Below are positions 2,486 to 62,087 of a stretch of DNA of 64,000 bases, one piece after another; position 1 is the stretch's first letter, and each line of letters opens with the position of its first letter. A model generated the notes under the pieces. The model was not told the DNA's origin. It ran no database searches and was given only the letters and a program-made list of their open reading frames with translations. The position numbers were made by a program, and so were the translations under genes. Origin of the DNA: an uncultured bacterium (lineage in GTDB: Bacteria; Verrucomicrobiota; Kiritimatiellia; PWTM01). The DNA lies in NCBI GenBank assembly GCA_937139365.1, contig CAKZPT010000090.1, forward strand, positions 77,346-141,345, given 5' to 3'.

Positions 2486-2823
2486 TCCATCTCCGCGGCG
2501 CCGCCGGCGGCCCGGCGGGCCGGTCGGTCGGCCTTGTGCTCGTGCCGCCGTTCAAACCATTTCCGGATCTGAAGCTCGACGTGGTCCACCGCCTGGTCGA
2601 TGGACTGGTACATGTCGGCCGACTCGCGGCGCGACTCGACCGGCCCGTGGTGAGGCACGTGCACCACGACCTCGGCGATGTGCCGGTGCTTCTCCACCAT
2701 CAACACGACGTGCGCGTCCTGCAGCCGCGGAAACTCGCCCAGCCGCGCGCGCATTCGCTGCTCGACGTGGTCGCGAAGCGCGTCCGTGACCTCCACGTGG
2801 CGTCCGGTGATCGAGATCCTCAT
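2482..2823 (-). CDS. hpf: Ribosome hibernation promoting factor (sigma-54 modulation protein family), 113 aa
   Basis: MRISITGRHVEVTDALRDHVEQRMRARL...AEVVVHV... is a typical RaiA/HPF N-terminus. An AGGAG Shine-Dalgarno sits upstream of the ATG at 2823. The track ORF extends spuriously upstream. Confidence 0.85.
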   Translation of the reverse strand: MRISITGRHVEVTDALRDHVEQRMRARLGEFPRLQDAHVVLMVEKHRHIAEVVVHVPHHGPVESRRESADMYQSIDQAVDHVELQIRKWFERRHEHKADRPARRAAGGAAEME

Positions 2824-2849
2824 CGGTGGCTCCTTTCCATGGGGTGGTC

Positions 2850-3584
2850 CTACATGCTGAACCTCGGCCCCAGATACAGTTCGCGGCTGACGGGGTCGTG
2901 GATCAGGAACTCGCTGGTGCCCTCCCGCAACACCCGCCCCTCGCAGATGAGGTAGGCCCGGTCCACCACCGCCAGCGTCTCTCGGACGTTGTGGTCGGTG
3001 ATGAGGATGCCCAGCCCGCGCTGCTTCAGGTTCATCACGATCTGCTGCACGTCGTAGACCGCCAGCGGATCCACGCCGCTGAACGGCTCGTCGAGCAAGA
3101 TCAGCGAGGGATTGGTCACCAACGCCCGCGTGATCTCTAGGCGCCGCCGTTCCCCGCCGCTGAGCGTGAAGGCCTTCTGGCCGGCGAGATGGCCGATCCG
3201 CAGGTCGCCCAGCAGGTGCTCCAGACGCAGCCGTCGCTCGCGCGCCGTCATCGGCAGCGTCTCGAGGATCGCCATCACGTTCTCGGCCACCGTTAGGTGT
3301 CGGAAGACCGATGGCTCCTGTGCCAGGTAACCCATGCCCATGCGCGCCCGCTGGTACATCGGCCGCCGCGTCACGTCCCGGCCCTCGAACCACACCCGGC
3401 CCGCCGTCGGCCGGATCAGCCCGATGATCATGTAAAACGTCGTGGTCTTCCCCGCGCCGTTGGGGCCGAGCAGGCCCACGATCTCGCCCGGGGCAACCGA
3501 GATCTCCACGCCGTCCACGACGCGCCGCCGGCGGTACTCCTTGACCAGCCCATCGGTCCGCACCAATGCCGCGCCGGCCACCAT
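2850..3584 (-). CDS. lptB: LPS export ABC transporter ATP-binding protein
   Basis: GLLGPNGAGKTT (Walker A), LSGGERRRLEI (ABC signature), ILLDEPFSGVD (Walker B). The position next to lptA/lptC supports the call. Confidence 0.9.
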   Translation of the reverse strand: MVAGAALVRTDGLVKEYRRRRVVDGVEISVAPGEIVGLLGPNGAGKTTTFYMIIGLIRPTAGRVWFEGRDVTRRPMYQRARMGMGYLAQEPSVFRHLTVAENVMAILETLPMTARERRLRLEHLLGDLRIGHLAGQKAFTLSGGERRRLEITRALVTNPSLILLDEPFSGVDPLAVYDVQQIVMNLKQRGLGILITDHNVRETLAVVDRAYLICEGRVLREGTSEFLIHDPVSRELYLGPRFSM

Positions 3585-3586
3585 GG

Positions 3587-4147
3587 CTACCGCAACCCCT
3601 TCAGGAAGTCGCTTTTGCGGCTCGCGTCGGGCTGGATGATCAACCGAGCATTGGGATAACACTCCAGCCGATCCTGGCCGCGCCAGAACGTGATGCGATC
3701 GCCGGTCATCATGTCGCGGCCGCGCAGGATTCGCGGATCGCCCTCGAGCACGAACTTGCCCTCGGCCACGTCGTAGGTGGCGCGGTCCGCCCAGGCGTGC
3801 TTGTCCGCCTGGCTGATCACGACGCGGCCCGTCGCCACGATCTGCTTGACTTGGTTCGACCCGGCCATCTCGATCCGCATGCGGTCGGCCTTCATCTTCA
3901 CGTCAGGGTCGCTGATGACCACTGAGCCATCCAGTTCGATGAGCTGCCGCCGGCCGTCGTAGACGAGGCGATCGGAGGTGATCACCGTGAGGTCGCCGAA
4001 CTCCGGCACGTCGGCCGTCGGGCTGGACACGGCCGCTGCGGCTGGCGCCGCGGCCGTGGGGCCGGCTGGCGGCAGGCTCCGCGTCTGCGACCACGCGGCC
4101 ATCGTAAGGAGGCCGGCCGCCACCACACCACCCCAGCGCCGCCTCAC
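3587..4147 (-). CDS. lptA: LptA-like (OstA N-terminal domain) periplasmic LPS transport protein with signal peptide
   Basis: Signal peptide RRRWGGVVAAGLLTMAAWS. The mature part, ...DRMRIEMAGSNQVKQIVATGRVVISQADKHAWADRATYDVAEGKFVLEGD..., is an OstA/LptA beta-jellyroll. The GTG start forms a GTGA overlap with the lptC stop. Confidence 0.7.
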   Translation of the reverse strand: MRRRWGGVVAAGLLTMAAWSQTRSLPPAGPTAAAPAAAAVSSPTADVPEFGDLTVITSDRLVYDGRRQLIELDGSVVISDPDVKMKADRMRIEMAGSNQVKQIVATGRVVISQADKHAWADRATYDVAEGKFVLEGDPRILRGRDMMTGDRITFWRGQDRLECYPNARLIIQPDASRKSDFLKGLR

Positions 4148-4611
4148 GGCCCGCCTCCCGTCCCGCCGGCCGCCGCCCGCAGGTCCGCCGGCAGGCTCCG
4201 ACGGACGTCGCGCAGCACCACGCGCGCGTTGGTCAGGATCATGAACCTCTGCTGCCGATGGTCGTACCGATAATGATGGCCGGTGATCACGGCGCCGCCC
4301 CGCACGATCCGGACCGTCGAGGTGGACTGCGCCACGCCGGTGCGCCGGTGGTAGACGCAATGAGGCGACGTGATCCGCGTCTCCACCTCGCCGCCGCGGT
4401 AGAATTCGACTTTCACGTTCTGAAGCTCGATTAGGTCGGGCGACACCATGGCGGCGTGGTCGCCGAACAACTGGGATCGCAGCGTGCCGTCGTCGTCGTA
4501 GTCGGGAATTCGAAATCCCTCCATCCGGCCGCCAGGCTGGAGCTGGCCCAGCGCGGCCAGCGCCGCCACCGCCAGCATCACCGCGCCGGTTCGTGCCGCG
4601 CCGCGAGTCAT
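4144..4611 (-). CDS. lptC: LptC-like membrane-anchored LPS export protein
   Basis: An N-terminal anchor MTRGAARTGAVMLAVAALAAL is followed by a small beta domain. It is called from its position between kdsA and lptA. There is an ATGA overlap with the kdsA stop. Confidence 0.6.
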   Translation of the reverse strand: MTRGAARTGAVMLAVAALAALGQLQPGGRMEGFRIPDYDDDGTLRSQLFGDHAAMVSPDLIELQNVKVEFYRGGEVETRITSPHCVYHRRTGVAQSTSTVRIVRGGAVITGHHYRYDHRQQRFMILTNARVVLRDVRRSLPADLRAAAGGTGGGP

Positions 4612-5459
4612 GCGCGTCTCCGCCCCGGCCGCGCCGGCGTCCGCACGGCCCGGTCGATCGCGGTCAGCCGCGCCCACAGGGCCGGCAGATCGCGCAACGG
4701 CAGAGAGTTGGGCCCGTCCGAAAGCGCGCGCCGCGGATCGGGATGCGTCTCGACGAAGACGCCGTCGCAGCCGGCCGCCACGGCCGCGCGTGCCAGCGCC
4801 GGCGCCAGCGCGCCGTCGCCGCCGGAACGATCCCCCGCCCCGCCCGGCCGCTGGACGCTGTGCGTGGCGTCGAAGATCACCGGCCAGCCGGTCTCCTTCA
4901 TCCAGACCAGACCGCGCATGTCCACCACCAGGTTGTTGTAGCCGAAGGTCGTTCCCCGCTCCGTCAGAAGGATCCGCCGGCCGCCCGCCGACTCGATTTT
5001 TTCGATCGTCGGCCGCAGGTCCCACGGCGCGAGAAACTGTCCCTTTTTCACGTTCACCGCGCGGCCGGTCCGGGCCGCCGCAACGACGAGATCCGTCTGA
5101 CGGCACAGGAACGCCGGGATCTGCAGCACGTCCGCCACCTCCGCCGCGGCGGCCGCCTGCGCGGGCTCGTGGATGTCGGTCAGCACCGGCAGGCCGTGGC
5201 GCCGTTTGACCTCGGCGAGGATCTCGAGCCCCGCCTCCAACCCCGGCCCCCGATAGGATCGGATCGAGGTGCGGTTGGCCTTGTCGTACGATGCTTTGAA
5301 GATCAACGGTACACCCGTCCGGTCGGCCCAATCGGCCAGACGCGCTGCGATCTCAAGGCAACTCCGCCGGCTCTCGATAACGCACGGGCCGGCGATCAAC
5401 ACCACGGGATGGCCCCCACCGACGACCACCGGTCCGATCCGAATCGCGCGCCCCGTCAT
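4608..5459 (-). CDS. kdsA: 2-dehydro-3-deoxyphosphooctonate aldolase (KDO-8-phosphate synthase)
   Basis: GPCVIESR...PLIFKASYDKANRTS...VNVKKGQF...PVIFDATHSVQ...GCDGVFVETHPDP is a full-length KdsA with its signature motifs. Confidence 0.9.
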   Translation of the reverse strand: MTGRAIRIGPVVVGGGHPVVLIAGPCVIESRRSCLEIAARLADWADRTGVPLIFKASYDKANRTSIRSYRGPGLEAGLEILAEVKRRHGLPVLTDIHEPAQAAAAAEVADVLQIPAFLCRQTDLVVAAARTGRAVNVKKGQFLAPWDLRPTIEKIESAGGRRILLTERGTTFGYNNLVVDMRGLVWMKETGWPVIFDATHSVQRPGGAGDRSGGDGALAPALARAAVAAGCDGVFVETHPDPRRALSDGPNSLPLRDLPALWARLTAIDRAVRTPARPGRRRA

Positions 5460-5598
5460 TCCGCCGCCAGTCTATCGGCCGCCGCCTGCGATTTCCAGTC
5501 CGCCGCTTCGCGTGCCCCACGGCCGTGGCCCGCCGCGCTGCGGTGGGCAGGCCCCCATCCTCCGCTCCTTTCCCCTCCTGATCAGTCCTCGAGTCCTC

Positions 5599-5854
5599 GG
5601 GGACAGGCACGAAGAACTCATGGGGGACGAGGCAGGCAGACCAAAACCGGTCGGGAAAAGCTCGAGTCGCACACGCGTCGAGCCAACCGCCATCGTCGCC
5701 GGCCGATGCGGCCACCCCAATCGAAAACGGCCCCTGACATGATCCCTCCGGAAGGACAGGCACGAGGAGCCGGGCATGGAAAAAACAAGGGAACAACCGA
5801 TTTCAGATGGCGATGACTCGCGGGGACAGGCACGAAAACAGGCACGAAAACATG
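5599..5854 (+). repeat. Four direct copies of a GGACAGGCACGA-like element. Each is followed within about 5 to 10 nt by CATG(G).
   Basis: Copies lie at about 5601-5614 (GGACAGGCACGAAG), 5753-5766, 5824-5835 and 5839-5851, the last being an internal CAGGCACGAAAAC duplication. All are in the kdsA/serA divergent intergenic region. Confidence 0.6.
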
Positions 5855-5992
5855 TAGGCAAGCCCGCTGACGGCACCCTCGCCCGAATTCGTTTAGCTGC
5901 TCGTTATGTGACGAGATTGCTTGATATTGTGACGATGGTCACGACAAAGTGCTTGCCAAGCACAAAAGGTCCAGTGTAGAGTCCTCGCAAAG

Positions 5993-6074
5993 GTTCCAAA
6001 CATTGGAGCCTAGGTCAGCCGAAAGTTCCAAACCTTGGAACCCCAGCTTGCATGTAGTTCCAATCTTTGGAAGT
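5993..6074. promoter_or_regulatory. Three tandem 7-3-7 palindromes, TTCCAA-N3-TTGGAA, spaced about 30-31 bp apart, 60-140 bp upstream of serA
   Basis: GGTTCCAAacaTTGGAGCC (5993-6011), GTTCCAAaccTTGGAAC (perfect, about 6026-6042) and GTTCCAAtctTTGGAAG (about 6056-6072). Spacing of about three helical turns suggests operators on the same DNA face. Confidence 0.5.
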
Positions 6075-6132
6075 TTCTAGCGGCCGGCAGGTGATGACGT
6101 TCGGGCGGACGGACGCTCACGGAGGCGATGCG

Positions 6133-7725
6133 ATGAAGAAGAAGGTGCTGATCCCGACGAAGCTCGATCGGATCGCAGCGGACATCCTCGCAAGACATGG
6201 CGGCTACGAGGTGGTGCAGGATGATACCGTCGGCTCGGACGAAGATCTCCTGCGTCTGGCGTCGCAACATCCCGACGCCTACGCGCTGATCGTGCGCAGT
6301 GAGCGGGTGACGCCGCAGGTGATCGACGCCGTGCCGGGCCTGAAGGTGATCATCCGCGCTGGGGCGGGGGTCAACACGATCGACACACGATACGCACGCC
6401 GGAGGGGAATCGATGTGATGAACACGCCCGGCGCCAACGCCAACGCCGTCGCCGAGGAGGTCATCGCGTTGGTGCTGGCGGACATGCGCCAGATCCTGCA
6501 AGCCGATCCCTCCTGCCGGGCCGGTCGCTGGGAAAAGAAGGCGTTCATGGGGCGCGAACTGGCCGGGAAGACCGTCGGCATTGTTGGCCTTGGCGCCATC
6601 GGGCGGCTTCTGGCCCGCCGCCTCAGCGGGTTCGACTGCCGCCTCCTGGGCTATGATCCCTTCGTTTCGCCCGACCTGGCCGCCGAGGTCGGCGTCACTC
6701 TGACCGACCTGCCGGCGTTGTTCGCCGAATCGGACGTCGTCAGCCTCCACCTGCCCGAAAACGAAACCACCCGCGGCATGGTGAACCGGGACCTGCTCGG
6801 CCGGATGAAGAGCGGGGCGATCCTCGTGAACTGCGCCCGCGCCGGCATCCTCGTCGAAGCCGACCTGCGCGCGATCAAGGCGGAGAAACAACTGCGGTTC
6901 CTCAACGACGTCTACCCCAAGGACGTCGAGGGTCCCAAGTCCGTCGCGGACATCGCCGACCTGATGATGCCGCATCTGGGCGCCAGCACGCGCGAGGCCA
7001 ATCAGATGGCCGCCCGCCGCGCTGCAGAGCAGCTCATCGAGTTCGACGACAAGGGCATCACCTCCTACATCGTGAACCGCGACATCCCCGAGGGGCTCGA
7101 CCGCTCGTTCGCGGACCTCGCCTTCCGCCTGACGCGGCTGTGCCGGGCGCTGGCCGGCCCCGACCGGCCGCTGAAGATGATCGAGACCAGCTTCTACGGC
7201 AGCCTCAAGCCGTTCGCGAACTACCTGATCGTCCCGATCGTCGCGGCGCTGGACGAATCGTTCGACCGCTCGATGGACCCGGGCGCCGCCCGTCGACTCC
7301 TGGCGGAGCGCGGCATCGAGTACGTGGACCGCGTGACGGACGACCGCAAGGGATACCAGAACTCGATCACGGTGGACCTGACCGTGGACCGCGGCGGCGG
7401 CGCCCTTCAGCGCACCAGCGTTCGCGGGACCGTGACGGAAGGAGCCCTGATGGTCTCCCGCGTGGACGATTTCCATAAACTCTATTTCGAGCCGAGCGGC
7501 CACCTGGTCGCGTTCGCTTACGCCGACCGGCCGGGCGTGATGGGGCAGATCGGTGCCATGCTGGCGCAGGCCGGCATCAACATCGACGATATCCGCAACC
7601 CCCACGATTCGACCGGGGCCAACTCCATCGCGATCCTGAAGGTCAATCAGCCCGTCCCGGCCGACACGGTCCGCCAAATCGCGGATCGGATCCAAGCCAC
7701 GGTGAGCTGCGCGGTCACACTCTGA
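6133..7725 (+). CDS. serA: D-3-phosphoglycerate dehydrogenase with C-terminal ACT domain
   Basis: Rossmann motif GIVGLGAIG. It has 2-hydroxyacid dehydrogenase catalytic and nucleotide-binding domains and a C-terminal ACT regulatory domain. The likely start is MKKKVLIP, which has a GGAGG Shine-Dalgarno. The track ORF starts at 6067. Confidence 0.9.
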   Translation: MKKKVLIPTKLDRIAADILARHGGYEVVQDDTVGSDEDLLRLASQHPDAYALIVRSERVTPQVIDAVPGLKVIIRAGAGVNTIDTRYARRRGIDVMNTPGANANAVAEEVIALVLADMRQILQADPSCRAGRWEKKAFMGRELAGKTVGIVGLGAIGRLLARRLSGFDCRLLGYDPFVSPDLAAEVGVTLTDLPALFAESDVVSLHLPENETTRGMVNRDLLGRMKSGAILVNCARAGILVEADLRAIKAEKQLRFLNDVYPKDVEGPKSVADIADLMMPHLGASTREANQMAARRAAEQLIEFDDKGITSYIVNRDIPEGLDRSFADLAFRLTRLCRALAGPDRPLKMIETSFYGSLKPFANYLIVPIVAALDESFDRSMDPGAARRLLAERGIEYVDRVTDDRKGYQNSITVDLTVDRGGGALQRTSVRGTVTEGALMVSRVDDFHKLYFEPSGHLVAFAYADRPGVMGQIGAMLAQAGINIDDIRNPHDSTGANSIAILKVNQPVPADTVRQIADRIQATVSCAVTL

Positions 7726-51250: not shown

Positions 51251-53713
51251 TCAGATGAACAGGGCCCCGCCGGAGCGGTCGGCCTCGGCCAGGAACGTGG
51301 CCACGCCTCCCAATTCGATCCCGTCCAGCAACTCCTCCCTCCGCAGCCCCATCACCTCCATGGACATCGTGCACGCGACCAGCCGCGCCCCGCCGCGGCG
51401 GGCGGAGTCGATCATCTCCGGCAGCGAGGCGACGTTTCGGCTCCTCATCACGTGTTTCATCATCGCGGTGCCCAAGCCGGCCATGTTCAGCTTCGACAGC
51501 TTCAGCGCCTTGGCGCCACTCGGCATCATCATGCCGAACAGCCGGTCCAAGGCCGTCTTTCCTTCCACGGCGGGGGCCGGGGATTTGCGCAGGGCATTGA
51601 GGCCCCAGAACGTGAAAAACATCGTCACGGGCTGGCCCATCGCCAAGGCGCCGTTCGCGATGACGAAGGCGGCGAGCACGCGGTCGAGGTCGCCGGAGAA
51701 GACGATGATCGTCTGGCCGCGCGCTCCCGTCCCGGCCGGTTCCGCCGCGGGGGCCGGCCGCGCGGCGCCCTTGCGGATCCGCGCGACGGCGTGCCCCCCC
51801 TCGTCGACCAGGCTCACCAGTTCATGGCCGTTGCGATCGCACCAGACGGCGACGTCCGATCGGAATCCGGGATCCGTGGCCCGCACGACCATCTCCTGCC
51901 CCGGCGCCATGGCCTCCATCTCCGCCTTGAGTTTCAAGATGGGGCCGGGGCACTGAAGGGCGGTGCAGTCCAGTTCGCGCGCGACGCCGGCGGGCGCTGG
52001 GGGCGCCTCCATTTTTTCCTCCGCGTAATGCAGCGTCGCGGGCGCCGGCCGGTCGAGTTCCGGCCCGAGCGAACGGTGTATGCAGCGGAACGTCAGCAGG
52101 CCGCCGGCCAGCGTCGCGACGTCCGCAAACCCCGACTGCGCGAGGATCCGATAGGCCAGGTAGCTGCGAAACCCGACCTTGCAGTACACGCGGATGGGCT
52201 GGCTCCGGGGCAGCTCGCCCAGCCGGGCGCGCAACTCGCCCAGCGGCAGGTTACGGGCACCGGAGATGTGGCCGGCCTCGAACTCCGCCGGACTCCGGAC
52301 ATCGAGCACCAGCGCGCCTTCCACGGCGCCGGGGTAATCCTCGGCATACCAAAAACGGACATCCCCGCGCAGTAGGTTGGAGGCGACGAACCCGGCCATG
52401 TTGACCGGATCTTTGGCCGACCCGAAAGGCGGCGCGTAGGCCAGCTCGAGGTGCTCGAGGTCGAAGACCGTCAGCCCGGCGCGAAGCGCCGTCGCGAAGA
52501 CATCGAGACGTTTGTCCACGCCGTCGAAACCGACCACCTGGGCGCCGAGCAGCCGTCCCGAATCGGGAGCGAACAACAGCTTGATGTGCATCGGCGAGGT
52601 GCCGGGGTAGTACCCGGCGTGGCCCGAGGGGTGGAGGTAGACCTTGCGGTACGGCAGGCCGGCGCGGAGCAGGTTTTTCTCGGTGGCCCCCGTGCCGCCG
52701 GCGGTCATGTTGAACACCTTGACGATCGCGGTGCCCTGCGTGCCGCGGTAGGCGGAGGTGCGTCCGGCGATGTGGTCGGCGGCGATTCGCCCCTGACGGT
52801 TGGCCGGTCCGGCGAGCGGGATGTTCCACGAGCCGGGCAGCACGGCGTGCGGCGTCTCGACCGCGTCGCCGACGGCGTAAATGGCGGGGTCGGAGGTGCG
52901 CTGGTGCTCGTCGACGAGGATGCCGCCGCGCGGCCCCAACGCCAGCCCGGCCGCGCGGGCCAGCGTCACCTCCGGCCGGACGCCAGCCGCGAGCACGACG
53001 AAGTCGGCCGTCAACACCGTCCCGTTGGTCAGCTCAGCGCTGATCCGGCCGCCAGACGAGGTGCGGAAAGCAGCGGCCGCCGTACCTAGGTGCAGGCGGA
53101 CACCGCGCGCCCGCAAATGGTCCTCCAGGGGCGCGGACATCTCCTTGTCGATCGGCGGCATGATCTGGTCCACCATCTCGACCAGGTCCACCTCCAACCC
53201 CCGGTGGCGCAGGTTCTCGGCCATCTCCACACCGATGTAGCCGCCGCCGATGACGATGGCGCCGCGGGCGCCTCTGTCCACCCGGCGCCGGATCTCGTCC
53301 ATGTCCTCGACGTTGCGCAGGCACAGCACGCGGGGATCGTCGATCCCGGGCAGGTCGGGGCGGACGGGGACGGCGCCGGGGGCGAGCACGAGCACGTCGT
53401 AGGGCTCCTCGTACTCCGCACCGCTGTCGAGGTTCCGCGCACGGATCTTCCGCGCGGTCCGGTCGATCGCCGTCACCTCGTGGCCGACGCGCACGTCGAT
53501 ATTCAGGGAGGCGCGCAGGCCCTCGGGCGATTGGAGCAGCAGCAGGCTGCGGTCCTTGATCACGTCGCCGATGTGATACGGCAGGCCGCAGTTGGCGTAG
53601 GAGACATAGCGAGTGCGCTCGAGCACCAGGATGCGCGCCGACTCGTCGAGCCGTCGGAGCCGGGCGGCCGTCGAGGCTCCCCCCGCGACGCCGCCGACGA
53701 TGACCACGTTCAT
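51251..53713 (-). CDS. Four-domain CoA-disulfide reductase-like flavoprotein, fused to rhodanese, TusA and DsrE-like domains
   Basis: FAD/NAD domain with the CoADR-type redox Cys in SYANCGLPY. Rhodanese CxxGxR motif in YCKVGFRS. TusA CPxP motif in LQCPGP. DsrE/DsrF-like C-terminus with LVACTMS. 819 aa from MNVVIVGG. Confidence 0.8.
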   Translation of the reverse strand: MNVVIVGGVAGGASTAARLRRLDESARILVLERTRYVSYANCGLPYHIGDVIKDRSLLLLQSPEGLRASLNIDVRVGHEVTAIDRTARKIRARNLDSGAEYEEPYDVLVLAPGAVPVRPDLPGIDDPRVLCLRNVEDMDEIRRRVDRGARGAIVIGGGYIGVEMAENLRHRGLEVDLVEMVDQIMPPIDKEMSAPLEDHLRARGVRLHLGTAAAAFRTSSGGRISAELTNGTVLTADFVVLAAGVRPEVTLARAAGLALGPRGGILVDEHQRTSDPAIYAVGDAVETPHAVLPGSWNIPLAGPANRQGRIAADHIAGRTSAYRGTQGTAIVKVFNMTAGGTGATEKNLLRAGLPYRKVYLHPSGHAGYYPGTSPMHIKLLFAPDSGRLLGAQVVGFDGVDKRLDVFATALRAGLTVFDLEHLELAYAPPFGSAKDPVNMAGFVASNLLRGDVRFWYAEDYPGAVEGALVLDVRSPAEFEAGHISGARNLPLGELRARLGELPRSQPIRVYCKVGFRSYLAYRILAQSGFADVATLAGGLLTFRCIHRSLGPELDRPAPATLHYAEEKMEAPPAPAGVARELDCTALQCPGPILKLKAEMEAMAPGQEMVVRATDPGFRSDVAVWCDRNGHELVSLVDEGGHAVARIRKGAARPAPAAEPAGTGARGQTIIVFSGDLDRVLAAFVIANGALAMGQPVTMFFTFWGLNALRKSPAPAVEGKTALDRLFGMMMPSGAKALKLSKLNMAGLGTAMMKHVMRSRNVASLPEMIDSARRGGARLVACTMSMEVMGLRREELLDGIELGGVATFLAEADRSGGALFI

Positions 53714-54741
53714 GGGGCCTCCATGTCTGACCGCGCTGGCACGGAAAAAAAGCATCTCACGATACCGTCACGGAATGAACAGTGCAAATCATCGGCGCGA
53801 CCAGGAGCAGATGAGGGCGGCGGGTCATCGGCCCAATCGCAGAACAATCCGTCCGAGCCCTTGCCCCGGAGCCTACCGTTGGTGACGAGGCGCCGTCGGC
53901 GACCACCCATGTGCCGCGACCGGACCCATCGAGAAAGACCGCCGCCGCCCCCGCGTGGCACGGCCCGGAGGCCGCCAAAGGCGACCGGCGTCGTGCCCCG
54001 AAATCCACGAAAACGGCCCACGATTCGATGTCCGCGAGTGCTGGCCCGTTACCGCCTCCAGTTCGTACCGATCCCCCCACTGCCGGCGCCGATACAGAGA
54101 AAGGCCGACCCGTCCCACGCGGCCGCAGGCGTAGGCCGAACCGACGACCTCGAAACTGTCCCTCCGGTCGCCGTCCATGAACAGCCGAGCGCCGGCGTGC
54201 ACGCCGGCCGCTGAGCTATTCGCGCCGGCAGTTCCGTCGGCCCCGCCGACGTCAGCAAAACGCCCACGCCGCCGACCGGCGCCCCCGACGGCTCGCCGTG
54301 TAGCACGAACCTCAGGTCGGAACCGATCCGTTTCAACACCTGCAGTCCACTCCACCCATCGGCGGCGATGGCGCCGTGGACATGCACGCCACCAAATGTT
54401 GCGCTACCAGCGACCCCACCCTTTCCCAGGCCCGTTCTACGATGGCGGGCTACGCGCGAACACCGCACACGGTAAAGGCCCCCGCCACGCGCCGAACCAT
54501 GATTCGTGCCCGCCCTGCCCTCCCCGGTGCCGGAGCGGATAGCACGGTCCGGTCCAGCCGGGTGTGCGTCCGCCTCCGCGCTTTTTGATGCCGAGTGAAC
54601 CCGCACTGGAACGACAGCCGTTCGAACGACCGGAACCGATCTTGCCGGCTCAACCGCGACGGACAAAACCCGCCTACGCCCACTCAAATGGTCAACTCGA
54701 ATGATCCGGAGCTTCCGCGAAACATCATGCCGACGGGCAGC

Positions 54742-54778
54742 GGTTGGAGGGGAGGCCCCGCCGGCGGTGGCCTCCAAC
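54742..54778. other. GC-rich hairpin (9-bp stem GGTTGGAGG / CCTCCAACC)
   Basis: The inverted repeat is seen directly in the sequence. No T-run follows on either strand, so it is not a canonical intrinsic terminator. It lies about 100 nt downstream of the small lipoprotein gene. Confidence 0.3.
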
Positions 54779-54876
54779 CCCAGGACCGCAAAAGGACCGG
54801 GGCGGTCAAAGCCTGAAATCGCGCGGCGGAAGCTCGTGGGAGCGCGGGGCGGCCCGCCGCCCGCCGGGCCGCAGCG

Positions 54877-55083
54877 TCAATAGCGCTCGGGCATCATGGT
54901 TCCCGGCATCAGCAGTTGGCCTTCCCACGCCTGCTGCCGGTTCCACGGCAGTTCGGACTCGGTATCGGGATCGGTGGTCGCGCACCCCGCGGTCCAGAGG
55001 AGGGCCGTGACGCCGACCCATACCGCGATCACCGCGCGGGCGGATCGGGGGACGCCGTTTTTCATTCCGGGAGCACAGGCCAC
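54877..55083 (-). CDS. Possible small lipoprotein (about 60-68 aa)
   Basis: Signal peptide with lipobox ...AVIAVWVGVTALLWTAGC. This is the only supporting evidence. Confidence 0.3.
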   Translation of the reverse strand: MACAPGMKNGVPRSARAVIAVWVGVTALLWTAGCATTDPDTESELPWNRQQAWEGQLLMPGTMMPERY

Positions 55084-55182
55084 ACAGTCGGCGGAGCGCC
55101 GTAATCCCGCATTTCAATCAATTGCAACGCCACCACGGCGGCCAGGCACAGCGTGGCGACGACCGACAGGACCGCCATCACC

Positions 55183-56034
55183 TTAATAGAGGACACGGTC
55201 GCCCTCCTCCATGGGTGAAACCGCCCACTCGTTTTCGATGTCCGCGATCGCCATGTGCTCGGCGGCCTGGGTGATCCGGACCTTCCCGATGAGCTGATCG
55301 CCGCGGTGCACCAGCATGTATGCGTCCTTCACCAATCCCTCGCGGGAGCCGATGTCGAGCACCACGAAGTTCCACTCCGTGTTCACCGCCACAATGTTCC
55401 CGTTGAGGCCCCGCGGCATCTGTTTCACGATGTTCGGGTCGTTCAAGTAGCGCGCCAGTTCCAGCTCGAGCCGCCTGACCTCGTCCTTCAAGTCGGCCTT
55501 GTCATTGTCGAGCTTGGCGATCTGCTCCTTGTTCTGCTCGATCGCGCGGTTGAGCTCGCCGATCTTCTCCTGGCGAGCGCCGATCTCGCGCTCGACGCTG
55601 GCCAGCTCAGCCTCCTTTTCGGCGATCCGCTGCCGCACGCCGGCAATCTGGCGGCGGGTGTCCTCCAGCTCCTGCCGGGTCCTCGCCAGCTCCTGCTTGG
55701 TCTGGTTGAGTTCGTCCGTGGTTCGCTTCAGGTCGTCCTTGGCTGCGTACAACTGGTCGTAGCGATTCTCCACCAGGGTTTCGACCACCCGGATCTGTCG
55801 CGCCATCGCGGCCGACTGCATCAGGCTGTTGCGGTCCACCTTTTGGTCGATCGGCTCGATGTAGGGTTCGCGGCCGGCCGCCAGAATTTCGGCCACCTGG
55901 ACGAGGTTGGCCTCGAGCGTTTGGACGCTGTGCTTCAGTTCTAAGCGCCGCGCGAACACCCGGTACTCGAGGAACGCGACGGCTCCCGCCAGAAGGAGGA
56001 TCAGCACCACCATTATCTGAAGAAATTTCGACAT
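55183..56034 (-). CDS. Membrane-anchored long coiled-coil protein with a C-terminal MreC-like beta-barrel domain (paralog 1)
   Basis: N-terminal TM segment IMVVLILLLAGAVAFL. About 180 aa of heptad-rich sequence, TTDELNQTKQELARTRQELEDTRRQIAG... C-terminal GNIVAVNTEWNFVVLDIGSREGLVKDAYMLVHRGDQLIGKVRI, which resembles the MreC beta-barrel block GxV...W...IDxGxxxGVxxxMxV...GLVGxV. Confidence 0.55.
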   Translation of the reverse strand: MSKFLQIMVVLILLLAGAVAFLEYRVFARRLELKHSVQTLEANLVQVAEILAAGREPYIEPIDQKVDRNSLMQSAAMARQIRVVETLVENRYDQLYAAKDDLKRTTDELNQTKQELARTRQELEDTRRQIAGVRQRIAEKEAELASVEREIGARQEKIGELNRAIEQNKEQIAKLDNDKADLKDEVRRLELELARYLNDPNIVKQMPRGLNGNIVAVNTEWNFVVLDIGSREGLVKDAYMLVHRGDQLIGKVRITQAAEHMAIADIENEWAVSPMEEGDRVLY

Positions 56035-56061
56035 GGCGTCGCCTCGTCCGATTTGATGCCG

Positions 56062-56916
56062 TTACTGAATGAAGACCCGGTCGCCCGGCTGCACCGGCTG
56101 CCGGAGCCAGTCGCGCTCTACGTCGCCCACCGATAGGTGGTCCCGAACGTCGGAAATCCGGATCCGGCCGACCATCTCCTCGCCGCGGTGGACGAGCATG
56201 ACGGTGTTCTTCTGAAGGCCGTGTTCCTTGCCGATGTCGAGGATCACGAAGTTCCACTGGGGATCCACGATCATGACGTTGCCGCGCAGGTGCTTGGCGA
56301 GGTCCCGGCTGGGCAGCGGCGGCGGCAGGAAGGGGGCCAGCGCGTCCTCCAGCCGCTGTTTCTCCTCCAGCAGCACCTTCTTTTCCTTCTCGAGGGTCGC
56401 GATCTGCCCTTTTTGCTCGTCGACCTGCCGGTTCAGCTCATCGATCTGGCTGCTGAGCTCGTTGAGCTCCTGCCGCGCCTGCGCGATCTGGGCCTCCTTC
56501 TGGGCCAGTTGCTCGTTGAGCATCGCCAGCTCCTGGCGCGCGCCGTCCAGTTCCTGGCGAGTGCGGGCCAGTTCCTGCTGCGTCGCCGTCAGCTCGTCGC
56601 GAGTCAGCTTCAGCGTGTCCCTGGTCTGGTGGAGCTGATCGCAGCGAACGGCGACGTTGGATTTCAGCCCCTCCAACGGCGCAGCCATGGCCGCGGTCGT
56701 CGCGAGGCCCGCGGGGCTCAATGGCTCCCCGAGCGCTTCGACGAACGGCTCGCGAGCCGCCGAGACCTTCTGCGAGATTCGGGCAAACCCCTCGCGCAAC
56801 GTTTTCGCCCGCACCAACAGTTCCTGCCGCTGACGGAACATGATCACTTCGAGGACCAGCGCCCCGATGCTGACCAGCAGCGCCAGGATCAGAAACACCC
56901 GCAAGACCTTGCCCAT
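56062..56916 (-). CDS. Membrane-anchored long coiled-coil protein with a C-terminal MreC-like domain (paralog 2)
   Basis: Same architecture as the upstream paralog. About 50% identity in the C-terminal domain: GNVMIVDPQWNFVILDIGKEHGLQKNTVMLVHRGEEMVGRIRI. The coiled coils are similar too (ELARTRQEL conserved). It starts at MGKVLRVFLIL. Confidence 0.55.
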   Translation of the reverse strand: MGKVLRVFLILALLVSIGALVLEVIMFRQRQELLVRAKTLREGFARISQKVSAAREPFVEALGEPLSPAGLATTAAMAAPLEGLKSNVAVRCDQLHQTRDTLKLTRDELTATQQELARTRQELDGARQELAMLNEQLAQKEAQIAQARQELNELSSQIDELNRQVDEQKGQIATLEKEKKVLLEEKQRLEDALAPFLPPPLPSRDLAKHLRGNVMIVDPQWNFVILDIGKEHGLQKNTVMLVHRGEEMVGRIRISDVRDHLSVGDVERDWLRQPVQPGDRVFIQ

Positions 56917-57033
56917 GACGTTTCCTCCGGACGCTGGCCCCGCGGTCCGGTCCGCGCGCCCGCGGCATCTAATCAACACAAATCCGGACGCAAATGCAAG
57001 ACGAATTTATGGCCCCCGGCAGTCCGCCCGCCC

Positions 57034-57906
57034 TCAGGCCTGCGGGGGCGACGGTTCGATCAACGAACCGGCCGTGCCGATCCGGCCTCCGAGCGCCGCC
57101 TCCGCCACGCTGCGGCCGTCGGAGAGCACCGGTGCCCGCCGCGGGATCCACAACCGCCGCCGCGCCCGGCCGATCAACCGGTAGCCGGGGCTCAAAAACA
57201 ACAGGGCATCGAGCTGGGCCGCCGTCCACGATAGCCATGCGAGGCCCCGCCACGCGTCCGCCTGCGCCCGGCAGAGCGTAATCGGGTCCGGCCGCCCCCC
57301 CGCTTCCGCCCGAGCCAGCCGCACAGTCCTCCGCCGACTAAGGACATCCACCCACTCGATCAGCAGCCGCGAATAACGCCGGCAGTCCTGCAGGTCGAAC
57401 CCGTCCTTCAACACCTCGAACAGGCGCGCCACCGTGAACCCGCCGTGCGGCCGAGTTGGCTCGCCGGCCAGCGCGCAGACCAGCGACAACGGGGATATCC
57501 GCGCCGCGAACGGCACGCTGATCACCAACCGTCCCGCCGGCTTGAGGACGCGATGCACTTCGCGGATCCACGTCGCCTGCTCCGCCACGTCGTCGGGAAG
57601 GACCAGCAGCACGGCAAGGTCGAACGTCTGGTCCTTCAACGGCAGCCGGCCGTCCTCGATCGCCACCACCCCGCGATCTCCGCAGAGATACCGAAGCGAC
57701 TCCAAAGCCGGCCCCAACGGTTCGGCGCTGGTCCACTCGCCTCCGCGGGCCCGCAGGAGGGCGCTCACCCATCCCGCCTCCCCTCCAATGTCTAGGCCCC
57801 GCAGCCCCGTCGGATCGCCGATCATCATCTCCAACTGGCGCATCCGAAGCATCAGCCGCGCGGATCCTCGCGCGGCCGGCAGGAGGGCGGCGGGCGCGTA
57901 TGGCAT
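57034..57906 (-). CDS. Putative class I SAM-dependent methyltransferase
   Basis: Degenerate motif I GLDIGGEAGW, a post-I acidic residue, and VLKPAGRLVI (motif III-like). Probably starts at MPYAPAALL. Confidence 0.45.
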   Translation of the reverse strand: MPYAPAALLPAARGSARLMLRMRQLEMMIGDPTGLRGLDIGGEAGWVSALLRARGGEWTSAEPLGPALESLRYLCGDRGVVAIEDGRLPLKDQTFDLAVLLVLPDDVAEQATWIREVHRVLKPAGRLVISVPFAARISPLSLVCALAGEPTRPHGGFTVARLFEVLKDGFDLQDCRRYSRLLIEWVDVLSRRRTVRLARAEAGGRPDPITLCRAQADAWRGLAWLSWTAAQLDALLFLSPGYRLIGRARRRLWIPRRAPVLSDGRSVAEAALGGRIGTAGSLIEPSPPQA

Positions 57907-58148
57907 CCCCCCGCCGGTCTCGGACCGTCGTTCCATGGCCGGATACTTTATAGCGCGCCCGGGGAATGCGATGCGAACCCCTGCCCGGCCGTCGCCCTTG
58001 TTGCCCCGGGCGATCGGTGTCCGGCAACGGCCGCTCGCCAAATACATCGCCCCCCCCAATCGCGTCCGGAGCACGGCAGCTCTCCGGAACCCCGTTCTTT
58101 GACTCCGGCCGGCACCGCCGTATGGTATGGTCTTCTTGGACGACGCCG

Positions 58149-58493
58149 ATGGACACCGAACCGCCAGCGCCGGCCGTTTCGGCCGAGGATGCGGACCTCA
58201 CCGCCCGCATCTGGGAGGCCCTTGCGAAGGTTCACGACCCGGAGTTGCACGCCGACGTCGTCAACCTCGGTCTGGTGTACGGTGTCGAGGTGCGCGAGGG
58301 GGCGGCGAAGGTGCGCCTGACGTTCACCTCGCCCGGATGCCCCTACGGCCCCTACCTCGCCCATCTCGTGCGCGAGGCGGTCCGTGCCGTCCCCGGCGTG
58401 GTCTCGGCCGACCTCGACCTGGTCTTCGACCCGCCCTGGCATCCGGCGCTGATGAGCGAGGAACTTCGGCTGGAGCTGGGATTCGACCTATAA
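58149..58493 (+). CDS. sufT: Fe-S cluster assembly protein SufT (DUF59/MIP18 family)
   Basis: IWEALAKVHDPELHADVVNLGLVYGVEV...LTFTSPGCPYGP is the DUF59 signature, with its conserved Cys. It lies immediately upstream of sufC. Confidence 0.7.
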   Translation: MDTEPPAPAVSAEDADLTARIWEALAKVHDPELHADVVNLGLVYGVEVREGAAKVRLTFTSPGCPYGPYLAHLVREAVRAVPGVVSADLDLVFDPPWHPALMSEELRLELGFDL

Positions 58494-58500
58494 GGACGCG

Positions 58501-59274
58501 ATGACGAACGCGCCGCAACCGCTGCTGCAGATCGAGGGCCTCCGAGCCGGGGTCGGGGGCCGGGAGATCTTGCGTGGACTCGATCTCGAGATCGCGGCCG
58601 GCGAGATCCACGCCCTGATGGGGCCCAACGGGTCGGGCAAGAGCACGCTGTCGAACGTGCTAATGGGCCATCCCGACTACGAAGTCGGCGCCGGCCGGGT
58701 CCGGCTGGCCGGCGAGGACCTGCTGGAGCTGTCGCCGGAGGAGCGGGCGCGACGGGGGCTCTTCCTGGCGTTTCAGTATCCGGTGGCGATCCCCGGCGTC
58801 AGCGTCGTCCAGTTCCTGAAGGCCGCCGTCGAAGCGGTGCGGGGGCGGGAGAGCGTGCGGGCAGCCGCCTTTCTCCGGGAACTGCGCGAGACCGCCGCGT
58901 TCCTGGAGATCGGCGAGATCTTCCTCAACCGGCCGATCAACGAGGGATTCTCCGGCGGCGAGAAGAAGCGGATGGAGATCCTCCAGATGCTGATGCTGCG
59001 CCCGCGAATGGTCGTCCTCGACGAGACGGACTCGGGGTTGGACATCGACGCGCTAAAGGTTGTCGCCCGCGGCGTGCAGCGCATCGCCGGCCCGTCGGCC
59101 GGCGTGCTGGTGATCACCCATTACGAGCGCATCCTCAACCACATCCCGCCGCACCGCGTCCACATCCTGCTGGAGGGTCGCATCGCGCGGTCGGGGGGCC
59201 CGGAGCTGGTGGCCGAGCTCGAGCGGCGCGGGTACGACTGGCTACGCGAGCCGTCGGCGGCCCCGTCGGGCTGA
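58501..59274 (+). CDS. sufC: Fe-S cluster assembly ATPase SufC
   Basis: [31 protein letters not shown]. Confidence 0.9.
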
Positions 59275-59288
59275 TCGGAGGCCGCGCC

Positions 59289-60719
<1,431 letters not shown>

Positions 60720-60767
60720 CCCCGCTGGCCCCGACACGCCCGCGGGGCCGCACGCGGTGTCCGGAGT

Positions 60768-62087
60768 TTGGAACACCGGCAGGCCGCCGTGTCCAAGGCT
60801 TGGAACACCGTGTCTGAGGCCCCGGCCATCCCCCTGCCCCCGGGCACCGCGAACGAGCCGCCGGCGCTGTCCGCGCGCCGTTCCGAAGCCGCGCGGCGCG
60901 CGGCGGACCTCCCCCCGCCCGCGCCGCACGACGAGGAGTGGCGGCGAACGGATCCGGCCCGTTTTCCTCTCGACGCTTGGCCGCCCGTACACCTCGAGCC
61001 CCGTCCGCCGAGGCCAGCCGACGCGGACCCGCTCGACGAGTTTTTCGACGTTGTGATCGAGATGGACGGCTCCGGCTGGTCGGTGCGCGACCGCGGCGGA
61101 GTGACGCAGAGCGGCCGGATCGCCGTCCTGTCGCTGGCGGAGGCCGCGGAGCGACACCCGGACGCCGTCGAGACGCTTTGGACGCTCGAGCCCGCCGTCC
61201 GGCCGCGCGACCGGCACGAGTGGGCGGCGATGGCGGCGGCGGCTGGCGTCTTTATCCGTGTGGAACCGGGCGCCGAGTTCGCTCGGGGGGTGCTCGTCCG
61301 CGTGCGGCAGCCGGCGGGTCGGTGGTTCTGTCCGCTGACGATGCTCGATGTCAGCGAGCGCTCGACGCTTCACGTGGTCTCGGCGATCCTCTCGGAGCCC
61401 GGCGACGGGCTCGCGGCGGAGACCGTGCGGTACCGGGTCGGGGCCGGCGGACGCCTCCGGCTGGCGCGGCTCCAGTTGTGCGCCGGCGGGCCGTCGCAAA
61501 TGGAGTTCGTGCACGGCCGGCTGTCGGAGGATGCGCAGCTCGACGCGGTCAGCGTGCACCTCGGTGGGGCGGCCGTCCGCAGCCGCGTCGGCGCCGAGGC
61601 GGCTGGCCGCGGCGCAGGCGTGCGCATCGGCGGCCTGCTGCTGGCCGCCGGCACCGAGCAGGCGGACCAGCAGACCGTGCAGATCCACTCGGCGCCGGAC
61701 ACCACCAGCGACCTGCTGTTCAAGGCGGCGGTGCGCGACCGCGCCCGCTCCGTCTACCGCGGGCTGATCGCCGCCCATCGCGGGGCGGTTCGCATCGCCG
61801 CCTACCAGAAGAACCAGAACCTCATCCTCAACGAGGGGGCCCGAGTCGACTCGCTGCCGGGCCTGCGCATCGACGCCGACGACCTCACCTGCACGCACGG
61901 CGCAACAATCGGCAGCCTCGACCCCGACGAGCTGTTCTACCTCCGTTCCCGCGGTCTGCCAGAGTCCGTGGCGCGGCGCCTGATCCTCGAGGGATTCTTC
62001 GAGGAGATCGTCTCGCGCCTGGCCATGCCGGCGCTGCGCGACGTCGTGCGGCGACACCTGGCGGAACGCATGGACGCACCCGCCTGA
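60768..62087 (+). CDS. sufD: Fe-S cluster assembly protein SufD
   Basis: SufB/SufD family C-terminal domain. Called by its position after sufB. The SufD-type C-terminus is ...LFYLRSRGLPESVARRLILEGFF. Confidence 0.85.
   Translation: MEHRQAAVSKAWNTVSEAPAIPLPPGTANEPPALSARRSEAARRAADLPPPAPHDEEWRRTDPARFPLDAWPPVHLEPRPPRPADADPLDEFFDVVIEMDGSGWSVRDRGGVTQSGRIAVLSLAEAAERHPDAVETLWTLEPAVRPRDRHEWAAMAAAAGVFIRVEPGAEFARGVLVRVRQPAGRWFCPLTMLDVSERSTLHVVSAILSEPGDGLAAETVRYRVGAGGRLRLARLQLCAGGPSQMEFVHGRLSEDAQLDAVSVHLGGAAVRSRVGAEAAGRGAGVRIGGLLLAAGTEQADQQTVQIHSAPDTTSDLLFKAAVRDRARSVYRGLIAAHRGAVRIAAYQKNQNLILNEGARVDSLPGLRIDADDLTCTHGATIGSLDPDELFYLRSRGLPESVARRLILEGFFEEIVSRLAMPALRDVVRRHLAERMDAPA

Follow-up and report, generated by a model that had tools for sequence, protein, structure and literature searches.

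Two adjacent genes in the window, i.e., the whole 64,000-nucleotide stretch of DNA analyzed here, encode membrane-anchored coiled-coil proteins of almost equal length. A sequence-only reading had seen a single MreC-like β-barrel at the C-terminus of each and had proposed a divergent scaffold of the cell envelope or of cell shape. Is this locus a new cell-shape system, and, if it is not, what might the two proteins do?

Two Paralogs in a Four-Gene Operon

The genes concerned, called A and B, are followed by two very small ones.

56062..56916, minus strand: gene A, an ORF of 284 aa with the C-terminus ...GDRVFIQ, the derived "A-type" copy
55183..56034, minus strand: gene B, 283 aa, recognized as an ORF, by BLASTP against A, and in the tree
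55062..55178, minus strand: mini-TM peptide of 38 aa from the ATG at 55178 (MAVLSVVATLCLAAVVALQLIEMRDYGAPPTVWPVLPE), directly after B
54877..55065, minus strand: mini-lipoprotein of 62 aa with lipobox WTAG↓C (Cys28), identified by the lipobox and by motif statistics

These four genes form a translationally coupled operon. The gap between A and B is 27 nt. After the B stop codon comes AAGGTGATG, where the mini-TM peptide gene starts, with AAGGTG lying right behind the stop codon and just 5′ of the peptide's ATG. The mini-lipoprotein gene in turn begins within an ATGA, in which its ATG and the peptide stop codon overlap. Gene callers start the mini-TM peptide at a GTG at 55196, which gives 44 aa. 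Promoter and terminator scans of the locus gave nothing above background.

The gapless BLASTP alignment and the tree indicate that the tandem paralogs of 283 and 284 aa are real. Their identity was initially put at roughly 50%; measured by BLASTP, it is 38%. The barrel domains are 44% identical, and the best-conserved region between A and B is a stalk block, residues 96–130 of A (TRDELTATQQELARTRQEL), with 54% identity. Both proteins have an N-terminal TM helix, an unbroken 120-residue heptad coiled coil, a Pro-rich linker, and a six-stranded barrel of 73 residues. The A product is a 100% match to P0001, and every homologue is 284 aa long. A GTG-extended A of 305 aa is ruled out, as all homologues begin MGKVLR, and the long plus-strand antisense ORFs over A and B (e.g., 55255–55944 and 56137–57234) are artefacts of the 66–68% G+C content.

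In the tree, the A and B copies fall into parallel subtrees that go back to one duplication; the A/B tandem is a single, lineage-specific duplication retained in one clade, that of the window. B is the ancestral-looking "B-type" copy, its C-terminus ...GDRVLY being that of single-copy homologues. Both duplicates persist, with the same stalk length and the same heptad register.

The C-Terminal Barrel and Its Relatives

56068..56286, minus strand: six-stranded β-barrel of A, residues 211–283, of the FlgT-C/MreC/ATPase-crown fold
55186..55404, minus strand: β-barrel domain of B, residues 211–283, placed by alignment with A

The AF2 model of A (pLDDT 87.3) has a single barrel, residues 211–283, and the protein ends right there. 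The model thus agrees with the view of A and B as bitopic coiled-coil proteins with one small C-terminal β-barrel.

The likeness to MreC holds in part. The modeled barrel is of the same fold class as the MreC barrel but is nearer to the barrels of FlgT-C and the ATPase crowns, Foldseek TMq values being 0.47–0.50 against MreC and 0.64–0.66 against FlgT. The Pfam MreC profile (PF04085) gives 17.1 bits for A and 14.7 bits for B, both below its cut-off of 28, and the NCBIfam MreC model NF010514 (PRK13922) gives 17.3 bits against a cut-off of 337. These scores are far too low for the reading of the pair as a divergent MreC-like scaffold of cell shape or the elongasome, in which the coiled coil would build a filament in the periplasm and the barrel would engage a PBP or RodA. 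That there is one barrel, not two, and that FlgT and the ATPase crowns fit better structurally also count against it.

Two relatives retrieved with the domain profile exceed the 27-bit cut-off of the FlgT_C profile (PF16538), P0099 with 34.4 bits and P0030 with 27.3 bits; A itself scores 17.0 bits and B has no match. The scores of these relatives support kinship at the superfamily level, not family membership of A and B. A profile search of the PDB with the barrel alignment gave nothing significant, the top match being TsaP at E 1.4.

With full-length A and B as queries, Pfam and NCBIfam yielded nothing but generic coiled-coil families (SMC, Rad50, crescentin, and EnvC) at scores far below the cut-offs, and these matches are taken as compositional similarity. 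Homologues carry precomputed Pfam labels (PF24161 CCDC39, PF28019 HmpF, and PF28256 CCDC171); these are weak or faint coiled-coil matches, and none is a barrel family. A literature search, in part loosely specified, found no described family with this architecture. Thus, the earlier impression that no described family covers A and B stands for Pfam, NCBIfam, the PDB, and the literature searched.

Membrane Anchor, Stalk, and Topology

56836..56904, minus strand: hydrophobic signal-anchor/TM helix of A, residues ~5–27, seen in the sequence, with the near-invariant K3 preceding it
56338..56697, minus strand: coiled-coil stalk of A, residues 74–193, from AF2 DSSP, heptad count, and alignment
55456..55815, minus strand: coiled-coil stalk of B, residues 74–193, from the gapless alignment and heptad analysis, with length and register as in A

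Residues 74–193 of A make up one helix of 120 residues, its heptad register unbroken and its period 3.50; if straight, it would measure ~18 nm. The TM-to-barrel spacing is 198 residues in 15 of the 16 A/B copies. Across the whole family, stalk length ranges from 163 to 223 residues, and because of this variation a strict "ruler" role of the stalk is not proven.

The N-tail of the stalk proteins is 6 residues long and K/R-bearing, and K3 and L5 are at least 90% conserved. The net charge of the TM flanks is about +1.7 over 6.5 residues on the N-terminal side and about +2 over 15 residues on the C-terminal side, so that the positive-inside rule is ambiguous and does not settle orientation. The predicted topology therefore rests on indirect arguments, the K/R-bearing N-tail with its near-invariant K3 being one and extracytoplasmic use of the barrel domain another. 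P0030 is a lipoprotein with four repeats of the domain; P0129 consists of a signal peptide, VIT, VWA, and two barrel-domain repeats; and the downstream partner of the stalk gene is itself a lipoprotein. We infer that the stalk proteins are oriented N-in/C-out, and therefore that stalk and barrel are periplasmic.

The reverse orientation, N-out/C-in, would make A and B a cytoplasmic, membrane-tethered coiled-coil cytoskeletal element of the crescentin or EzrA kind, functionally unrelated to the mini-genes. The K/R-rich C-terminal TM flank would suit such an element, as would the weak generic coiled-coil matches, which include Rod_CreS, Filament, and EzrA, and the cytoplasmic location of the ATPase-crown barrels of the same fold. 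However, Rod_CreS (PF19220) reaches 25.8 bits against a cut-off of 100 and Filament (PF00038) 20 against 40, i.e., generic coiled-coil similarity. The near-invariant K3 lies in a signal-anchor-like N-terminus, the same domain is found in a lipoprotein and in a signal-peptide VIT–VWA protein, and the stalk gene is tightly translationally coupled to the lipoprotein gene and co-occurs with it almost universally. We give the cytoskeletal reading very little credence.

The Conserved Module

What is conserved is the barrel protein together with the mini-lipoprotein, with or without the mini-TM peptide. The A/B pair is not that unit, a single copy being the rule in most genomes; the two downstream mini-genes had at first been overlooked. 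At its core, the module has a bitopic protein (TM, coiled coil of ~120 residues, Pro-rich linker, and FlgT-C-class barrel) directly followed by a lipoprotein of ~50–60 aa with PW(N)x4W(E). A and B fit the family pattern of TM, coiled coil, and C-terminal WNFVxLDxG...R...GD barrel, and the domain profile matches family members at E 1e-24 to 1e-34. The domain family numbers 6153 domain clusters. Far from being restricted to the one genome, the module extends across Verrucomicrobiota sensu lato (Kiritimatiellia, Lentisphaeria, Verrucomicrobiia, and others), with at least 379 species genomes carrying it, and the barrel gene in them is usually single-copy.

The mature mini-lipoprotein, ~35 aa, has an invariant P-W...W, here LPWNRQQAWEG and in general form LPWNxxxxWEG. 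A six-frame search of 655 kb comprising 84 loci found PW[NDSE]x3-6W[EDQ] 80 times. All 80 matches lie at most 480 nt downstream of a barrel gene and on the same strand, spread over 79 loci; elsewhere in the six frames of the 655 kb, there are none. With a PWG variant and one frameshifted copy accounting for two further loci, the lipoprotein is found in 79–81 of the 84 loci. Its homologues form 600 clusters, all of 48–68 aa. The mini-TM peptide has the conserved tail LQxxExxxYxxxPSxWP (motif PSxWP), with which it is present in at least 54 of the 84 related loci; in loci of the Kiritimatiellia/Lentisphaeria type, it sits between the barrel and lipoprotein genes.

The cassette is preserved although its flanks are unrelated between loci. 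In the window, the neighbors are a methyltransferase, SUF genes, and a CoADR fusion. Clustering of the neighbors at the 84 loci revealed no other conserved neighbor, only clade-level synteny with housekeeping genes (asd and leuB), and none of the linked genes points to a functional partner or a process. The absence of an mreB/mreD context, remarked on at the outset, extends beyond the window: mreB, mreD, PBP, and RodA genes are missing from it, and none recurs among the 84 loci. The suggested association with PBPs or RodA thus fails at the 84 loci, and nothing ties the locus to cell shape. The conserved partners, a mini-lipoprotein and a mini-TM peptide, are foreign to MreC systems. Added to the evidence from the barrel, this makes the MreC-like scaffold very improbable.

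Flagellar, pilus, and secretin genes do not recur next to the cassette at the 84 loci either. This bears on the proposal that A and B serve as an accessory periplasmic collar of a trans-envelope machine encoded elsewhere (a secretin, pilus, or secretion system), in the manner of FlgT in the H-ring or TsaP around PilQ. Such a collar is unlikely, as the cassette acts as an autonomous unit across differing genomic contexts and FlgT-N, FlgT-M, and LysM domains are absent.

Envelope sensing of the Rcs/Cpx type suggests by analogy a surveillance pair, in which the mini-lipoprotein would be the sensor ligand, like RcsF or NlpE, and its contact with the inner-membrane stalk would shift with envelope geometry. 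The layout is compatible with this: the stalk has an inner-membrane anchor and a constrained length, and the lipoprotein is unstructured and carries an invariant motif. However, the stalk protein, with its N-tail of ~6 residues, has no cytoplasmic signaling domain, and no kinase or regulator consistently adjoins the cassette at the 84 loci. We consider a surveillance role distinctly unlikely.

A Putative Periplasmic Scaffold or Tether

Contrary to the first proposal, the locus is no new cell-shape system. The envelope-scaffold part of that proposal remains plausible; the cell-shape and MreC part is unsupported by profile score, barrel number, and gene context. The locus belongs to an undescribed Verrucomicrobiota module of stalk-barrel protein and mini-lipoprotein. 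Our overall reading, tentative but the likeliest of those considered, is that this module quite possibly forms a periplasmic scaffold or tether; that function is putative.

We suggest the following arrangement. A and B would assemble into a hetero-oligomeric coiled coil, parallel and in register, with its anchor in the inner membrane and the mini-TM peptide at the membrane-proximal base of the stalk. The mature lipoprotein, unstructured and too short to fold alone, would use its Trp motif to dock, more probably on the barrel than on the base. The stalk of ~18 nm, together with the base helix and the linker, would roughly match the width of the periplasm, and the whole would span the envelope as a scaffold or tether. 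The barrels might further assemble into a higher-order ring or lattice, because barrels of the same fold typically self-associate laterally, as in the FlgT ring, the TsaP ring, MreC assemblies, and ATPase crowns. Candidate cellular roles are envelope spacing, tethering, or acting as a collar for another machine. The A/B module showed no peptidoglycan-binding domain.

A precedent for docking comes from the Vibrio LPHT ring, in which two lipoproteins, FlgH and FlgP, attach by extended segments to grooves on the FlgT ring; counting against it, the binding sites of these peptides are on the N and M domains of FlgT, not on FlgT-C (bioRxiv 10.64898/2025.12.04.692373). The most specific form of the proposal, a phylum-specific trans-periplasmic connector in which a mini-lipoprotein of the outer membrane is caught by its Trp motif in the FlgT-C-like barrel of a constrained-length inner-membrane stalk, is possible but doubtful. 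Were it true, Verrucomicrobiota, including Kiritimatiellia and Lentisphaeria, would own an inner-to-outer-membrane tether or spacer, a functional analogue of Lpp or TolA-Pal made of unrelated components, and in one clade its stalk would be an A/B heteromer.

The cell envelopes of Verrucomicrobiota and their PVC relatives are unusual and poorly understood, and in Kiritimatiellia and Lentisphaeria, next to nothing is known of envelope proteins peculiar to the phylum. A compact, autonomous module of two to four genes, carrying no Pfam, NCBIfam, or PDB annotation, is a testable candidate for a lineage-specific envelope structure. It would also widen the reach of the FlgT-C/MreC/ATPase-crown barrel as a reusable periplasmic assembly module. 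Two of its products, the mini-proteins of ~40 and ~60 aa, are left "hypothetical" or mislabelled by standard annotation pipelines.

Comparison with Known Systems

MreC (PF04085; PDB 2J5U, 2QF4, 6ZLV, and 7EFT) has two barrels, a short coiled coil, an mreBCD operon, and PBP2 as a partner, whereas A and B have one barrel, a 120-residue coiled coil, and no mre, PBP, or RodA context. A and B do have an N-terminal TM helix followed by a coiled coil; the periplasmic C-terminus of MreC is for them a prediction.

FlgT of the Vibrio flagellar H-ring (FlgT_C PF16538; PDB 3W1E and 8Z5N) is a soluble protein of three domains, N, M, and C, without a TM helix or long coiled coil. In contrast, A and B lack this three-domain layout and have the FlgT-C-like barrel only, joined to a TM helix and a coiled coil. 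FlgT is encoded among flagellar genes; the A/B locus has other partners and no flagellar context (flgO/flgP/motX/motY). TsaP, associated with the secretin of type IVa pili (PDB 3JC8), has LysM, lacks a TM helix and coiled coil, and associates with PilQ; the A/B locus has no pilus context. The crown barrels of the F1, V1, FliI, and EscN ATPases and the HAS-barrel of HerA are cytoplasmic and fused to a P-loop ATPase, and there is no ATPase in A or B.

Connectors of the TolA-Pal and Lpp type combine an inner-membrane anchor, a long helical stalk, a small C-terminal domain, and a small lipoprotein partner. With no sequence or fold relation and no adjoining tolQR, the likeness of the A/B module to these connectors would be one of architecture only.

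The tandem genes and their operon

Genes A and B encode stalk-barrel proteins (TM anchor, coiled coil, C-terminal barrel). They are followed on the same strand by two small genes, as follows.

Features of the operon (positions on the window)
56062-56916, minus strand: gene A, ORF of 284 aa from ATG
55183-56034, minus strand: gene B, ORF of 283 aa
55185-55183, minus strand: TAA stop codon of B, followed by AAGGTG and then by ATG at 55178
ATG at 55178, minus strand: mini-TM peptide ORF, 38 aa, MAVLSVVATLCLAAVVALQLIEMRDYGAPPTVWPVLPE
Minus strand, next in order: mini-lipoprotein ORF, 62 aa, lipobox …LLWTAG/C, mature part of ~35 residues, CATTDPDTESELPWNRQQAWEGQLLMPGTMMPERY

A and B are 27 nt apart, and the mini-TM peptide stop overlaps the mini-lipoprotein start (ATGA). 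Both mini-ORFs are listed in public gene calls for the same contig. The four genes are packed into one operon.

BLASTP aligns A with B over 282 residues without a gap (38% identity, 65% positives, E 1e-73). The two are genuine paralogues, equal in length and architecture. The ORFs and this alignment bear out the sequence-only reading of two adjacent paralogous ORFs sharing one architecture; its figure of roughly 50% identity was an overestimate. Identity is highest in stalk block 96-130 (54%), which includes a shared TxQELARTRQEL, reaches 44% in the barrel, and drops to 20%, the lowest value, in the membrane-proximal helix.

A 305-aa, GTG-start version of A was rejected, because every homologue begins MGKVLR. 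The G+C content of the window is 66-73%. Antisense ORFs lie opposite A and B at 55255-55944 and 56137-57234 on the plus strand (229 and 365 aa), with low-complexity translations rich in Leu, Arg and Gly; most likely these are not genes but high-G+C (66-68%) artefacts.

Anatomy of the stalk protein

Full-length A was modeled with AlphaFold2 from 30 aligned homologues (mean pLDDT 87.3), giving the following segments.

AlphaFold2 segments of protein A
2-52: helix, TM segment plus membrane-proximal helix
53-73: loop bearing the conserved REP(Y/F)(I/V)E motif
74-193: single continuous helix
Pro-rich linker: disordered, pLDDT < 50 at 197-205
211-283: barrel

Over residues 74-193, A and B alike have L, I, V, M or F at one heptad position in 15-16 of the 17 heptads, and at another, three residues further along, in 8 of them; the main periodicity is exactly 3.50. 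The segment forms a canonical coiled coil without stutters, with a length of ~18 nm when straight.

The C-terminal barrel

The C-terminal pattern noted from sequence is found in both proteins and is conserved throughout the family. When modeled in isolation (A 199-284, with an alignment of 22 barrel sequences), the domain has six strands and a pLDDT of 89.7. Foldseek searches with the barrel place FlgT (8Z5N, 3W1E) at the top, with E ~1e-3 and TMq 0.64-0.66; for MreC, the best E value is 6e-3 and TMq is 0.47-0.50. Against Pfam, the barrel domain alone stays below the cut-offs: for MreC it reaches 17.1 bits in A and 14.7 bits in B (cut-off 28), and for FlgT_C 17.0 bits in A (cut-off 27). Relatives that carry the domain two to four times exceed the FlgT_C threshold: P0099 scores 34.4 bits and P0030 27.3 bits. 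These scores show that the earlier perception of an MreC-like barrel was right at the level of fold; the barrel is better described as FlgT-C-class than as MreC.

The further step, that A and B are a divergent MreC serving cell shape, is disfavored and appears largely wrong. None of the MreC membership tests that could be run placed A or B in that family, and barrel number, gene context and partners argue against it along with the scores.

Other architectures contain the domain as well: the lipoprotein P0030 has four tandem copies, P0129 has two barrels in addition to a signal peptide, VIT, VWA and a coiled coil, and P0061 and P0099 each have a TM segment, a coiled coil and two barrels. These architectures point to a larger, mostly unannotated superfamily of FlgT_C-like domains. 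The barrel fold, and its use in periplasmic scaffold proteins in general, is already known.

A conserved module with two small partners

The sequence of the window recurs unchanged in a contig of MAG GCA_036845605.1. Full-length homologues form 29 clusters from Kiritimatiellae and Verrucomicrobia MAGs, all labelled hypothetical. At 72% identity, locus L004 has A, B, a 44-aa gene and a 61-aa gene in the same order; its flanks are entirely different. More distant genomes (L005, L007) have one stalk-barrel gene followed by both mini-genes, and in Verrucomicrobiia-type loci (L009, L091) the lipoprotein gene directly follows the stalk-barrel gene. A barrel-domain profile matches 6153 representative clusters with a threshold of E ≤ 1e-3, and 1690 still match with E ≤ 1e-10; most have 250-295 aa, with the domain C-terminal. 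Restriction to one genome, which the sequence-only reading had considered, does not hold: a scan of species-representative genomes with one peptide pattern matched 379. The best 80 of the 379 include Kiritimatiellia, Lentisphaerae, Verrucomicrobiia, Spartobacteria/Chthoniobacter, Pedosphaera, Methylacidiphilales and one Omnitrophota.

The small genes were traced in 84 non-redundant loci. In all six frames of these 655 kb, the mini-lipoprotein motif PW[NDSE]x3-6W[EDQ] has 80 matches in 79 loci, all on the same strand as the barrel gene and within 480 nt downstream of it. The five remaining loci comprise one PWG variant, one frameshifted copy, L011 and L053, which are outgroup sequences in the tree, and L019, from which the gene is apparently absent. 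At least 54 of the 84 have the mini-TM peptide (consensus …LQxxExxxYxxxPSxWP). In the mini-lipoprotein alignment, Cys, P, W and W are invariant, and N and E nearly so. A profile search returned 600 clusters, all of 48-68 aa, among which there is no Pfam domain and no fusion; a few bear spurious automatic names, e.g., LolB or YajG. In L035 (4273-4520, a Kiritimatiellae MAG), the gene is split over two frames (…IPWNAP / PQPWEGSPGIPGLEGR), either an assembly-error frameshift or a pseudogene.

Apart from housekeeping genes in clade-level synteny, the 84 loci have no further recurrent neighbor. Neither the stalk-barrel protein nor either small protein matches a family in Pfam or NCBIfam, and the resources searched hold no description of a module of TM segment, long coiled coil and single FlgT-C-like barrel with PWN-WEG and PSxWP partners. 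The stalk-barrel gene, the mini-lipoprotein gene and, often, the mini-TM peptide gene constitute a conserved, autonomous, translationally coupled module. Its conservation is solid, and the hypothesis of its function proposed below is clear and testable. The tandem A/B pair is a local elaboration of this phylum-wide, uncharacterized envelope operon.

The tandem duplication and stalk length

A neighbor-joining tree was built from 88 stalk-barrel proteins. In it, the eight two-copy species have their first copies in one clade and their second copies in its sister clade, with matching internal branching. This topology indicates that one duplication took place at the base of the two-copy clade, with both copies kept since. 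The C-terminus …GDxVLY/F is common to B-type copies and the closer single-copy proteins (e.g., P0014 of L005); that of A-type copies is …GDRVFIQ. The distance from TM end to WNF motif is exactly 198 residues in 15 of 16 A/B copies, and every A-type protein of 46% identity or more has exactly 284 aa. Family-wide, this spacing runs from 163 to 223 residues, clustering at ~167 (Verrucomicrobiia-type) and ~185-206 (Kiritimatiellia-type). The matched length and register of A and B fit a putative parallel hetero-oligomeric coiled coil.

Genomic surroundings

Just upstream of A is a Methyltransf_11 gene (57034-58074, minus strand), divergent from a SUF Fe-S assembly operon (57966-62087, plus strand: FeS_assembly_P/DUF59 protein, sufC, sufB, sufD); other genomes do not share this context. 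A TPP riboswitch (RF00059; 62999-63108, minus strand; 65.2 bits, gathering score 54.3) lies near a Thi4-like thiazole synthase gene, which public gene calls place beyond sufD. On the other side, ~1.1 kb (53756-54876) separates the mini-lipoprotein gene from a fusion gene. This gap holds no credible ORF, three public contig copies have no gene call there, and Rfam gave no match at E ≤ 1; such inverted repeats as it contains are weak. L004 does not share the gap, and YjeF follows there ~80 nt after the cassette. The fusion gene (51251-53755, minus strand, 820-834 aa) joins Pyr_redox_2/Pyr_redox_dim (CoA-disulfide-reductase-like), Rhodanese, TusA and DsrE-like domains; an adjoining TauE sulfite-exporter-like gene suggests a sulfur-trafficking cluster.

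Elsewhere, L004 (Kiritimatiellae MAG GCA_026417735.1) has a type II CRISPR-Cas locus at 1712-6425, ~4-8 kb upstream of the cassette, with cas1, cas2 and a 1180-aa HNH-containing Cas9-like gene. In the distant L092, genes for an Arf-like small GTPase and a Roadblock/LC7 protein (3668-4666), an MglA/MglB-like pair, immediately precede the stalk-barrel gene; no such pair was seen at the other loci.

Topology and a proposed connector

The tail before the TM segment averages 6.5 residues with 1.85 K/R, K3 being at least 90% conserved, and the 15 residues following the TM segment are likewise net positive; therefore, charge bias alone cannot fix the topology. The stalk and barrel are predicted to be periplasmic, because they have a lipoprotein as obligate partner, the mini-TM peptide's conserved tail is opposite its K/R-bearing N-terminus, the domain recurs in lipoprotein P0030 and signal-peptide VIT/VWA protein P0129, FlgT, TsaP and MreC are all periplasmic, and the N-terminus, with near-invariant K3, resembles an uncleaved signal anchor. 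A cytoplasmic cytoskeletal element is contradicted by the coupling to a lipoprotein gene and by the domain's extracytoplasmic contexts in other proteins. An envelope-sensing pair would have to work with a stalk protein that has no cytoplasmic output domain.

The stalk (~18 nm), base helix and linker together would be of the order of the periplasm's width, which makes coherent the model of a putative connector from the inner membrane to the outer membrane or peptidoglycan. The mature mini-lipoprotein is likely too short for independent folding and probably binds as an extended peptide via its pair of invariant Trp residues; the candidate receptor that suggests itself is the barrel, with the membrane-proximal base as the alternative. 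Assembly into a ring or lattice is plausible, because barrels of this fold repeatedly associate side by side into such structures. By analogy to FlgT and TsaP, the protein might instead be a collar of another envelope machine, a possible reading that no linked genes support.

FlgT offers a precedent for the proposed binding of an extended lipoprotein peptide. FlgH and FlgP, two lipoproteins of the Vibrio LPHT ring, insert extended segments into FlgT-ring grooves (bioRxiv 10.64898/2025.12.04.692373). Those segments contact the N and M domains of FlgT (bioRxiv 10.64898/2025.12.04.692373), whereas here the barrel is the proposed site.
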